Shown piece by piece: positions 40,537 through 42,414 of a DNA stretch of 63,484 nt; the first letter of the stretch is position 1; each line of letters begins with the position of its first letter. Position numbers and translations under genes: made by a program. The stretch spans positions 1 through 63,484 of the forward strand of contig JBGQJV010000001.1 in the NCBI GenBank assembly GCA_041499215.1. Reading direction: 5' to 3'. The DNA comes from Gemmatimonadota bacterium (GTDB taxonomy: Bacteria > Gemmatimonadota > Gemmatimonadetes > Gemmatimonadales > GWC2-71-9). The notes under the pieces were generated by a model. It saw nothing but the letters and a program-made list of their open reading frames with translations, was not told the DNA's origin and did no database searches.

Positions 40537-40852
40537 CTAGTCGTCGTCCCAATCACGTTCGACACGGGCCTCACGTCTGTGAGACCGCCAGAACCTCCGC
40601 TCCTGTGCACGATTCTCCGCGTAGCACTGGGCGACATACAGAACCATCCTCGCCCGCACCCGCACCCGCGCGCCGGTGAGATCCACGAATACGATCCGGC
40701 CGTCGGCGCCGGCGGCAAGCAACTCCCGCTCGGCGGAGCGCGCCATCGCGGCGCTGAGGTACCAGTTGGCCTCCTGGGTGCAGAGAACGAAGTAGTCCCC
40801 GCGCCTGCGCTTCAGGCCGGGCGCCGTCTTCTCTTTCGCGTACCTGTGTCAT
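40537..40852 (-). pseudogene. small ORF with an apparent frame problem just after its start (unknown family)
   Basis: ATG at 40852 with GAGGG 4 nt upstream opens an Arg-rich, junk-like frame. The adjacent frame (stop at 40537) reads the protein-like HRYAKEKTAPGLKRRRGDYFVLCTQEANWYLSAAMARSAERELLAAGADGRIVFVDLTG..., but has no canonical start before Met at 40746. Confidence 0.3.
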
Positions 40853-40888: not shown

Positions 40889-41053
40889 TCAATTCGATAC
40901 CACCTCCTGCTCCACCCGCGGCCGGACCGGCGGCCTCCCCGCGGCAGACCGGAGCAGCAGCGGGTACACCGCGCGCTCCGCCCGTCGCAGAGCGGGGCTC
41001 GCCTGATAGCGGTCCTCCGGCCGGGCGAGCCAGAGAGTCCGAGGATCCAGCAT
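40889..41053 (-). CDS. small hypothetical protein (54 aa)
   Basis: Consensus SD AAGGAGG 5 nt upstream of the ATG. High third-position GC. MLDPRTLWLARPEDRYQASPALRRAERAVYPLLL... No family recognised. Confidence 0.45.
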   Translation of the reverse strand: MLDPRTLWLARPEDRYQASPALRRAERAVYPLLLRSAAGRPPVRPRVEQEVVSN

Positions 41054-41098
41054 CCGGGCCTCCTTCGAGCCATCCCGCGTGAGAGACCCAGCGCGACG

Positions 41099-41119
41099 GG
41101 ACGTGTGTGCCACACGTCC
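41099..41119. promoter_or_regulatory. perfect 9-3-9 palindrome upstream of the 54-aa ORF
   Basis: GGACGTGTG-tgc-CACACGTCC, about 45-65 nt upstream of the ATG at 41053. Confidence 0.4.
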
Positions 41120-41196
41120 TTGGAGTCGCGTTCCACCGTGCGCGGGCTCCACGCCCGCCGGCCGGTGTCATCTCACTCTGGACAGCCCCGAAAAAC

Positions 41197-41238
41197 GGAA
41201 TCGCCCCACCTGTCGGCCTGCACAGGTGGGGCGATTCC
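41197..41238 (-). terminator. strong intrinsic terminator
   Basis: Perfect 17-bp stem GGAATCGCCCCACCTGT / ACAGGTGGGGCGATTCC with an 8-nt loop, followed on the minus strand by GTTTTTCGGGG. Confidence 0.8.
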
Positions 41239-41262
41239 GCCGCCGGTCGGTTCCCAGAGGTG

Positions 41263-41451
41263 TTATCCCCCGAGTCGCGCCGGACTCCCGTGCAGGCTAC
41301 TCACTTCCAAACCATCACTCACGCGCAGCTTCAATCCATCCTCGCCGTAGGTGCCACCGGAGAATCCTGAACGCCCCCCGGCAGACCAAAGGGGTGCGAC
41401 CGGAGCAATCCGGCGCTGGGCGTGCAGGTAGTCGTCAGGACGCAGTTGCAT
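41263..41451 (-). CDS. 62-codon ORF of unknown function (could instead be part of a non-coding RNA)
   Basis: GGAG 3 nt upstream of the ATG. MQLRPDDYLHAQRRIAPVAPLWSAGGRSGFSGGTYGEDGLKLRVSDGLEVSSLHGSPARLGG. Third-position GC is lower than in neighbouring genes. Confidence 0.3.
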   Translation of the reverse strand: MQLRPDDYLHAQRRIAPVAPLWSAGGRSGFSGGTYGEDGLKLRVSDGLEVSSLHGSPARLGG

Positions 41452-41571
41452 CGGCTCCTCAGGTCCAGAAAAAGGAAAGTCGCGCCACCGTGGAGGTGAT
41501 CGGTGCTCCCACACCGACACCGGCAGACCCGGAAGGGCCGGCTCATTCCAACGGGACGCGACTCCCAGAGG
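41452..41571 (-). promoter_or_regulatory. structured 5' leader with attenuator-like features
   Basis: Mutually exclusive helices TCGGTG/CACCGA and CACCG/CGGTG. Loop CACCTCC. Long-range stem GGGAGTCGCG/CGCGACTTTCC followed by TTTTT. Confidence 0.4.
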
Positions 41572-41577
41572 GGAGAC

Positions 41578-41606
41578 ATTTTACGAATCGGGCGTTGATC
41601 TGTCAA
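41578..41606 (-). promoter_or_regulatory. near-consensus sigma70 promoter
   Basis: Minus strand TTGACA-17 nt-TAAAAT. Confidence 0.65.
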
Positions 41607-41638
41607 TACTGAAGTTCCGAGTTCCAAGTTCCGAGTAA

Positions 41639-41660
41639 GGGCCGCACAGCCGTGCGGCCC
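41639..41660 (-). terminator. hairpin downstream of the 41677-42414 gene
   Basis: GGGCCGCAC-agcc-GTGCGGCCC, about 17 nt after the stop. Followed by a GTTCCGA heptamer array (41614-41635). Confidence 0.5.
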
Positions 41661-41676
41661 CTACACTGGAACTGGC

Positions 41677-42414
41677 TCAATGCCCGGCGGTGTCGACCGA
41701 GAGCGAGAATCGGCCGTCACCCGCGTCCAGACGGACAACCTCGCGACCGTTTTTGTCGCGCACCCTGATGCTGGCTCCGGTGCTGTCGGCGAACAGCCGG
41801 AGCACCGCCCTGCCCAGCCCGTCATTCACCTTGATGTTGGCCCCGTGGTGATCGGCCAGGAGCCGCACCAGCTCCCCGCCGTCGCCCCTGGCGTTGATCC
41901 GCACCGCACCGCCAAGATCGGCCGTGGCCTCGAAGGCGTCGCCGTGCCGCATGTCCGCGGCGACCGAGGGAACAACCATGATCGGCCGGTCGATATCGCC
42001 CGGGGTGAAGCGGGCGCGACCCAGCTCCACCAGATTGCCGGTCAGACCCTCGGCGCAGGTGAAGCCGCTGTCGAAATCGAAGTCACGCTGCCGCTCGGGC
42101 AGCAGCACGCAGCCCTGCAGCTGGCGTCCGGCACTGGCATCGGCAAGCTCGACGGTCAGGTTCACCTCCGGCAGTGCACCCGACTCGTCGCGGCGAATCG
42201 TGGCCCGCCGGACGGTACCCAGCCGCTCGCCGTCCAGCCTGAACGGGATATCCGACGCGGCGCTCGCGACACGGGAGAAGGCGCTCGAGTGGAGCGCGGT
42301 GGTGATGGCGTCAGACGCGGCGGCCTTGGCTTGCCGGCCGACCGTAACCAACATCATGCCGACAACGAACACGCCGAGGGCACCAAGCCCGATCCTGGTC
42401 CAGAGGCTTCGCAT
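41677..42414 (-). CDS. membrane-anchored hypothetical protein with three C-terminal ~22-aa repeats
   Basis: GGAGG SD. N-terminal TM segment (IGLGALGVFVVGMMLV). Repeats GAVRINARGDGGELVRLLADHH / GANIKVNDGLGRAVLRLFADST / GASIRVRDKNGREVVRLDAGDG. Start at MRSLWTR (Met34 of the ORF). Confidence 0.55.
   Translation of the reverse strand: MRSLWTRIGLGALGVFVVGMMLVTVGRQAKAAASDAITTALHSSAFSRVASAASDIPFRLDGERLGTVRRATIRRDESGALPEVNLTVELADASAGRQLQGCVLLPERQRDFDFDSGFTCAEGLTGNLVELGRARFTPGDIDRPIMVVPSVAADMRHGDAFEATADLGGAVRINARGDGGELVRLLADHHGANIKVNDGLGRAVLRLFADSTGASIRVRDKNGREVVRLDAGDGRFSLSVDTAGH

Follow-up and report, generated by a model that had tools for sequence, protein, structure and literature searches.

Introduction

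Leader-peptide, ribosome-mediated transcription attenuation governs amino-acid operons such as trp, his, leu, thr and pheA, and in Salmonella the mgtA and mgtCBR leaders combine a defined Mg2+-sensing fold with proline codons and Rho-dependent termination. The bmrB-bmrCD operon of Bacillus subtilis possesses a ribosome-mediated attenuator (PMC4191407), similar antibiotic-responsive leader open reading frames (ORFs) are found for example at mef/mel (PMC4335068), and the attenuator RNA liberated from rnTrpL/trpL of Sinorhizobium meliloti can act in trans (PMC6614838, PMC7298713). Little is known about gene regulation in Gemmatimonadota, and a literature search returned no report on cis-regulatory RNAs or attenuators in this phylum. 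Here we describe a transcription unit on the minus strand of a 63,484-nucleotide (nt) stretch from a Gemmatimonadota bacterium of the Gemmatimonadales (contig JBGQJV010000001.1 of assembly GCA_041499215.1, positions 1 to 63,484; hereafter the window), which we consider, with moderate confidence, to be the ribosome-dependent transcription-attenuator leader of a small operon comprising ORF53 and usually ORF3. Read in this way, the element represents a form of leader-ORF transcription attenuation that has not been described before and is conserved in Gemmatimonadales, the principle itself being familiar in bacteria. The locus would offer a compact case, accessible to testing, of transcription control by ribosome sensing in a phylum other than the model ones.

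The putative leader shares several features with attenuators of the trp and his type. A short ORF, presumably translated, precedes the structural genes, and the 5' arm of the terminator (region 3) can pair with an upstream segment (region 2) instead of with its own 3' arm (region 4). Judged here by geometry alone, a ribosome terminating at the stop codon would block region 2, and the terminator is thermodynamically favoured, which leaves the choice to kinetics. Unlike those attenuators, the Gemmatimonadales leader has no regulatory codon runs, no conserved peptide and no conserved 1:2 hairpin. Region 2 lies within its ORF, which is long (19-62 codons), the genes under its putative control encode functionally uncharacterised small proteins instead of biosynthetic enzymes, and the locus has in addition a conserved 5' domain and a complementary loop further downstream.

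With bmrB the unit has in common a leader ORF of tens of codons with alternative stem-loops and an intrinsic terminator, and in both systems translation and not the product would set the level of read-through, the input here presumably being translation status and no particular amino acid. In bmrB the terminator is part of the coding region, while the one described here comes after the stop codon; moreover, the downstream genes are not transporter or resistance genes, and the two systems show no sequence or family relationship. Since neither a region 1 nor regulatory codons were found, the signal would be general translation status or initiation at the leader ORF, and by analogy the unit seems closer to antibiotic- or stress-responsive leader ORFs such as bmrB than to the attenuators of amino-acid operons. 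As in the case of rnTrpL, attenuation would release a terminated leader RNA, possibly with a function of its own, which fits the consensus promoter and the invariant 5' strand described below. However, rnTrpL has ~110 nt and carries Trp codons, while the RNA predicted here has ~380 nt and no regulatory codons, and a trans role is conjectural. The mgtA and mgtCBR leaders likewise combine a structured 5' RNA domain with a leader ORF whose translation selects downstream structures, but no conserved aptamer core is present in the Gemmatimonadales leader and its terminator is an intrinsic-type hairpin.

Terminator and proposed antiterminator

Related loci were reached via homologues of the upstream 245-amino-acid (aa) hypothetical protein, which occur in Gemmatimonadales metagenome-assembled genomes and soil metagenomes, and the comparison set consists of 19 non-redundant loci representing ~9 lineages. 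The unit lies directly 3' of the 245-aa gene in all 19, and the identity of this neighbouring protein ranges from 91% down to ~45% among them. All elements that a preliminary description had listed at 41606-41191 were present in the window, arranged on the minus strand as upstream-gene hairpin, promoter, ~120-nt leader, Shine-Dalgarno (SD) sequence with a 62-codon ORF, and hairpin with U5 (Table 1). Its proposal of a transcription unit with structured leader, short ORF, strong terminator and attenuator grammar held, the unit being conserved across the 19 loci, and so did the near-consensus promoter behind the upstream hairpin: all 19 loci have an invariant TTGACA with precisely 17 nt between it and TAnnnT, and only two sites of this grade occur in 11 kb of the window (0.5 expected). 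From the promoter, the transcription start site would lie at about 41571, and the resulting ~390-nt transcript has a folding z score of -3.9 against dinucleotide shuffles. A same-strand leader ORF with SD sequence, a terminator hairpin, a predicted covarying antiterminator and an occlusion geometry, which are features of the attenuator class, were all found.

The terminator hairpin T1 contains 18 Watson-Crick and two G-U pairs (-41.3 kcal/mol, RNAfold) followed by U5, so that the closing hairpin with U-run noted earlier is present. T1 did not appear in a simple terminator scan, probably because the G-T extension of the stem consumed part of the T-run. A hairpin of 15-20 bp and -30 to -43 kcal/mol is found in all loci, with 89.5% of the stem cells paired across 19 sequences. 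If the RNA is folded up to, but excluding, the right arm of the terminator, the 2:3 helix is predicted in 19 of 19 sequences and closes a three-way junction, which holds a small hairpin that carries or adjoins the stop codon of the leader ORF. The stop codon lies in the loop of this hairpin in nine sequences, partly so in one more, and in or beside the stem in the others.

Covariation lends moderate support to region 2 and region 3 forming an antiterminator that excludes the terminator. On alignment A4, 86% of the 2:3 cells are paired, compared to 21-53% in slid registers, and 7 of the 10 pairs show changes on both sides. The observed value was reached by none of 500 shuffles for four of five measures and by 11 of 500 for the fifth. 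In two loci (L021, L040) an A in the T1 loop, unpaired in the terminator, is changed to C together with a U to G change in region 2, and a U in the T1 stem is replaced by C (L046) or G (L041) together with its partners in both region 2 and the right arm. When region 3 was hybridised in silico to the upstream 71 nt (RNAduplex), the duplex was better than those of dinucleotide shuffles in every sequence (p 0.000-0.066) and formed at a consistent position. Region 2, CCUGCAC(A/G)GG (41296-41287), which is the reverse complement of region 3 (41226-41217), is the sole conserved stretch in the 3' part of the ORF, and its GCAC is read in codon phase 0, 1 or 2 depending on the lineage. Since the motif occurs in all three frames, it is the RNA that is constrained and no peptide motif of the LH(G/R) kind. 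The conserved alternative pairing involves the 3' end of the ORF and the terminator, and not, as had been proposed, helices inside the 5' leader.

Compared to the antiterminator state, the terminator state is favoured by 11-27 kcal/mol. If a choice is made between them it must therefore be a kinetic one, and such dominance is to be expected of an attenuator under kinetic control. The end of region 2 and the stop codon are separated by 13-22 nt, and a further 19-28 nt lie between the stop codon and the terminator stem. A ribosome has a footprint of ~30 nt; positioned at the stop codon, it would, given this spacing, overlie or touch region 2 while the terminator stays accessible.

Leader ORF

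An SD sequence (GAGG, GGAG or AGGA, 3-6 nt before the start; GAGGAG-N3-ATG in the window) and an ATG occupy the equivalent place throughout the 19 loci, each of which has an open frame of 19-62 codons. In mononucleotide shuffles the frame stays open with a probability of 0.15-0.63 per sequence, which gives a product of ~2e-4 over the ~9 lineages. The stop codon is always located 24-33 nt before the CGCCCC core of the terminator, and the stop codons fall into one column block of alignment A4. The 19 leader peptides, in turn, share no conserved residues between lineages. Pairwise dN/dS of the ORF amounts to 0.55-1.03 in most pairs, with substitutions spread evenly over the codon positions, and to 0.23-0.42 in one subgroup, whereas the 245-aa gene shows 0.08-0.23 and a strong third-position excess in the same genome pairs. 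A near-neutral peptide behind a maintained SD sequence, ATG, open frame and stop position argues that translation is selected and its product is not. These comparisons indicate that selection keeps the translation of the leader frame, and ribosomes most likely translate the ORF in a regulatory, leader capacity.

A functional, fast-evolving small protein (62 aa in the window), flanked by an ordinary 5' untranslated region and a terminator, would equally demand an open frame with SD sequence and ATG in all lineages. The third-position GC (GC3) of 0.83-1.0 in several lineages, as in translated genes, and the lower dN/dS of the one subgroup would also suit such a protein. We nevertheless regard it as quite improbable, since there is no amino-acid conservation between lineages, the length varies from 19 to 62 codons and most pairs show a dN/dS of about 0.6-1.0. 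In addition, a phmmer search of the 62-aa ORF against 1.8 billion representatives returned two clusters, the query itself and one 48%-identical relative of 62 aa, a Pfam/NCBIfam match is missing, and the sole conserved stretch LH[GR] corresponds to a nucleotide motif that is read in other frames elsewhere. The C-terminal Gly-Gly, which had been singled out as a feature, is replaced by GA, GT, RT, RI, VD, AS and others in the relatives. A ThiS/MoaD-like or double-glycine peptide was also considered and dismissed for this reason, together with the lack of purifying selection on the sequence. The 62-aa "hypothetical protein" annotated here and in relatives is best regarded as a leader ORF and not as a protein family.

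The preliminary description had found the GC3 of the window ORF to be lower than that of its neighbours, which we can confirm (0.65 compared to about 0.85-0.9), and had suggested that the transcript may be non-coding. This suggestion is right in so far as the peptide is not under selection, but SD sequence, ATG, frame and stop are maintained. It had recognised neither leader nor peptide, and no known RNA or protein family matches them. An Rfam scan at gathering scores gave no match in the whole window and in 12 related loci, and at E<=10 the region 40900-41800 gave only hairpin-driven chance matches to archaeal sRNA and miRNA models. Pfam and NCBIfam contained nothing for the 62-aa and 85-aa ORFs, the 245-aa neighbour, ORF53 and ORF3; among the neighbours, only the downstream GGDEF-EAL protein had a match.

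Proposed mechanism

We propose that transcription from the near-consensus promoter would yield an RNA that starts with a stable stem-loop domain closed by the helix P1, followed by SD sequence, AUG and a leader ORF whose amino-acid sequence would be irrelevant. A ribosome reaching the stop codon would melt and sterically block region 2, so that the 3:4 terminator could form. With efficient translation of the leader, most transcripts would then end at ~41191 and an RNA of ~380 nt would be released. If ribosomes are absent, late or stalled upstream, region 2 could capture the emerging region 3, and the resulting 2:3 three-way junction would delay folding of the terminator, allowing RNA polymerase to read into ORF53 and ORF3. 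The input would be translation of the leader ORF, reflecting either general translation status and stress or initiation controlled via the 5' domain. The ORF53 protein and the family of ORF3 would then appear to be expressed only when leader translation falters. The comparison shows that every part is conserved, that the 2:3 complementarity covaries, that a near-neutral peptide goes with a maintained ORF, that the unit is strictly linked to ORF53 and that the geometry fits; from this we infer the direction of the regulation, its signal and the roles of the 5' domain and the complementary loop downstream.

Several observations weigh against this mechanism. The U-tract behind the hairpin is good in the window but poor in some lineages (GCCAUUCAUGG in L021 and L040), and intrinsic termination may not be assured in every lineage. 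A conserved region 1, which would provide a 1:2 pause or anti-antiterminator hairpin, was not found: in full-length minimum-free-energy (MFE) folds the partner of region 2 differs by lineage. The 2:3 helix spans only the apical half of the terminator arm, so the basal 10 bp could still form and antitermination may be inefficient. No regulatory codon runs or tandem codons are shared among the 19 leader peptides. The covariation was obtained from 19 sequences of ~9 lineages, and the divergent L031 supplies several of the double changes. Furthermore, transcription start, termination and read-through are all predictions made from sequence, and the strict sequence invariance of one strand of P1 (strand A) and of its downstream complement is not explained by an attenuator.

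Table 1. Positions of the features of the unit and its neighbours in the window
Feature	Position	Strand	Remarks
Hairpin ending the upstream 245-aa gene	41663-41633	-	Promoter follows
Sigma-70-type promoter TTGACA-17-TAAAAT	41578..41606	-	11/12 consensus positions
Strand A, GGGAGUCGCGUCCCG, 5' strand of P1	41552..41566	-	Invariant in 16/16 domain-bearing sequences
Variable interior of 5' domain	41495..41542	-	Hairpins P2 (41542-41523) and P3 (41521-41495), three-way junction
Strand B, CGGUGGCGCGACUUUCC, 3' strand of P1, with U-run	41469..41490	-	Strand 41490-41475, U-run 41473-41469
SD sequence GAGGAG and leader ORF	41263..41460	-	SD 41460-41455, ATG 41451, TAA 41265-41263; 62 codons, ending LGG-TAA
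Region 2, (G)CCUGCACGGG	41287..41297	-	Inside ORF; complementary to 41226-41216; proposed 5' strand of antiterminator
Small hairpin with leader stop UAA in loop	41253..41274	-	Enclosed by 2:3 helix
Terminator T1	41191..41241	-	Left arm 41241-41222, loop 41221-41214, right arm 41213-41194, U-run 41195-41191
Region 3, CCUGUGCAGG	41226-41217	-	Apical half of T1 left arm, into loop
Hairpin M3	41075..41166	-	Between T1 and ORF53; apical loop ACGCGACUCC (41131-41122)
ORF53 (MLDPRTLWLARPEDRY...; MLDPRTLWLARPEDRYQASPALRRAERAVYPLL...)	40889..41053	-	53 codons, start MLD(P/I)R(T/L)LWL
ORF3	40537..40852	-	~103-aa family, invariant FVDLTGAR motif; usually follows ORF53

5' domain

The long-range leader stem followed by TTTTT, as noted in the preliminary description, is present: P1 is a 15-bp helix (GGGAGUCGCG.../...CGCGACUUUCC) followed by UUUUU and is part of the MFE fold in the window. 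Among 16 sequences 96% of the P1 cells are paired, compared to 39-60% in slid registers. Strand A is invariant (alignment A5) although the neighbouring protein drops to ~45% identity. Strand B follows the consensus G(G/A)CGCGACUU(U/C)... and varies solely opposite G or U, with pairing always kept; the variation in P1 is thus one-sided and wobble-compatible (G-U/G-C, U-A/U-G), and double compensations do not occur. Such invariance of one strand suggests sequence-specific recognition. In L021 (4035-4060) and L040 (4040-4065) we also noted a second strand-A-like copy, CCGGUCGCGUCC(A/C)C, between leader stop and terminator, which shares its potential pairing partners with the 5' strand.

Sequence-specific recognition might also take place on DNA, if the invariant GGGAGTCGCGTCCC motifs (A, the relatives B and the inverted copy C) were operators for a factor that represses the promoter or acts as a roadblock, RNA structure being incidental. 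Strand A forms a quasi-palindrome (GGGAnnCGnnTCCC) at about +6 to +20 from the inferred start site, its invariance exceeds the needs of base pairing, and a second near-identical copy is found ~430 bp downstream. Strand B, however, changes only in ways that preserve the RNA pairing, the interior hairpins keep structure while their sequence changes, and neither the 2:3:4 covariation nor the leader ORF is addressed by an operator, all of which makes this explanation highly improbable.

The interior of the 5' domain is much less constrained than P1 and retains some structure, but neither sequence, length nor topology. Per-sequence folds show a three-way junction inside P1 in the window group and in L034 and L035, and a single hairpin of unrelated sequence in L021, L029, L031, L041, L044 and L046, whereas a small hairpin replaces the whole domain in the clade of L022, L024 and L027, which keeps the remainder of the unit. 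An aptamer-like conserved core was not found in the sequences compared, in which only the closing helix is conserved. This bears on the preliminary description, which had seen the grammar of a riboswitch or attenuator in the unit: the attenuator grammar stands, a riboswitch-like core does not. A riboswitch, or another protein- or ligand-sensing aptamer with P1 and the U-run as its own terminator, would profit from the good folding of the domain and from a conserved helix whose U-rich tail immediately precedes the SD sequence. With an interior unconserved down to its topology, a U-tract that degenerates in several lineages (to CGUCGUUUC in some), a clade that dispenses with the domain, and no Rfam match at the gathering score or at E<=10, such a sensor is very improbable. 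P1 with the U-run is also unlikely to be a conserved first terminator, given the degenerate U-tracts. Sequestration of the SD sequence by the 5' end or the U-run was likewise discarded because the predicted partners are inconsistent across lineages.

The alternative pairings originally suggested for the leader are found in the window but are features of single lineages. The competing TCGGTG/CACCGA and CACCG/CGGTG helices are conserved only in the closest relatives, and the loop with CACCTCC, suggested to be capable of masking an SD sequence, is not conserved as a CACCUCC anti-SD, several lineages having a single hairpin in this part of the leader. The 3' CGCGACTC (CGCGACUC), able to pair with the 5' end, and the second CCTCTGGGA (CCUCUGGGA) are absent or altered in relatives. 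Homologous loci, which the preliminary description had named as a test of its helices by compensatory changes and of the ORF by selection, provide covariation at 2:3; those helices are not conserved, and the peptide is near-neutral.

Downstream genes and a complementary loop

The unit had been described as an orphan. ORF53, however, lies immediately downstream whenever the unit is present and is absent from loci without the unit (L011, L014, L018, L020, L023, L025, L026, L028, L030, L032, L033, L036-L039, L042), so that the presence of the two coincides exactly. Since the unit is always directly 5' of ORF53, it is a leader and not an orphan. In the compact loci L022, L024, L027, L031, L044 and L046 the ATG of ORF53 is located 53-59 nt past the terminator core and ~15-20 nt past the hairpin, and these nucleotides contain the SD sequence of ORF53. 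A separate promoter for ORF53 does not fit into this space, so that ORF53 must be expressed by read-through. A promoter scan of the window also detected no other promoter-like site between T1 and ORF53.

ORF53 has a dN/dS of about 0.3-0.5, is rarely called by gene callers, and a homologue search returned two proteins only. ORF3 yields an AlphaFold2 (AF2) model with a small beta-barrel and a long helix (pLDDT 76), whose fold matches to Rv3208A, DUF903 and Hfq/Sm (E>=0.015) are too weak for a functional assignment, and a profile search against PDB sequences gave no match. The locus thereby points to two uncharacterised small proteins, ORF53 and the ~103-aa FVDLTGAR family. In the window, the N-terminal part of ORF3 (ATG ~40852) is in another frame than the remainder, for which the annotation gives 69 aa. 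As a relative with at least 90% identity has 104 aa, the window copy apparently contains a frameshift near its N-terminus or an assembly error.

Unusual additions at this locus are the sequence-invariant 5' helix and an exact complement to it in a downstream hairpin loop. The apical loop of M3 is the exact reverse complement of strand A (41565-41556), and the 10-mer occurs exactly twice in the window, at A and inverted in the M3 loop. In predicted folds the base of M3 pairs the U-tract region of T1 with the SD sequence of ORF53. This complementarity suggests an added long-range or trans layer.

One may ask whether the RNA is primarily a stand-alone or dual-function small RNA that is produced in large amounts from the consensus promoter, ends at T1 and acts in trans or in cis via its invariant 5' strand, e.g. 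on the ACGCGACUCC loop before ORF53, while 2:3 serves folding, processing or stability. The near-consensus promoter and the strong terminator suit such an RNA, as do the invariance of the 5' strand over 15 nt and its 10-nt complement in M3, which is present in 13 of the 16 sequences with strand A (13 lineage representatives) and never without it. Synonymous sites of the leader ORF have diverged less than those of the neighbouring gene, which indicates constraint at the nucleotide level, and rnTrpL provides a precedent for action in trans (PMC6614838). A small RNA leaves the conserved SD sequence and ATG, the maintained open frame and the fixed position of the stop unexplained, though, and strand A is kept without the downstream loop in three lineages (L031, L044, L046). 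Moreover, ORF53 requires read-through in the compact loci. We consider this explanation unlikely as a replacement for the attenuator, with which it is compatible as an added layer.

A bolder proposal, which is rather unlikely and which we put forward as speculation, extends the attenuator to an RNA device with several inputs. Strand A would toggle between its P1 partner close to the leader ribosome-binding site and the loop of M3, the hairpin that would sequester the ribosome-binding site of ORF53. In this way translation of the leader, termination and translation of ORF53 would be linked across ~440 nt. Feedback might come from the product of ORF3, which is possibly Sm-like, or from ORF53, through binding to the shared ACGCGACU motif, and the device as a whole would signal translation stress to small proteins of a new class in Gemmatimonadota.

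Surroundings of the unit

The unit is single-copy in the window, and a strict DNA-pattern scan of metagenome contigs returned three loci only. A miniature inverted-repeat transposable element with A and C as terminal inverted repeats was ruled out as its origin, as the unit is single-copy and syntenic, the repeats do not enclose its promoter and A is retained where C is missing. In L018 (3755-3800), L020 (3775-3810) and L038 (3255-3300), which do not possess the cassette, a hairpin directly follows the 245-aa gene, and this hairpin, GCCCC(A/G)CC...GG(U/C)GGGGCG, is nearly identical in sequence to T1. Given this T1-like hairpin, it looks as if an insertion, or a deletion, of the cassette had taken place between the 245-aa gene and the ancestral terminator of that gene.

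The spacer from the stop codon of the 245-aa gene to the -35 hexamer consists of short repeats of 5-7 nt, direct as well as inverted, which vary from lineage to lineage, as observed in the window (~41680-41607, minus strand), L016 (3140-3215), L033 (3830-3900) and L047 (3235-3315). In the window spacer GGAACT is present three times and flanks the hairpin. At the other end of the locus, a conserved non-coding region (...CGGCACCGGCCTTGCTACCTC...GTTTCGATCTGCA...GTCAAG...ACCAGCGAACCGCAAG; window ~40530-40335, minus strand) precedes the PAS-GGDEF-EAL gene. Its presence in the cassette-free loci L018, L020, L023 and L025 as well marks it as a regulatory leader or promoter region in its own right, which belongs to the PAS-GGDEF-EAL gene.

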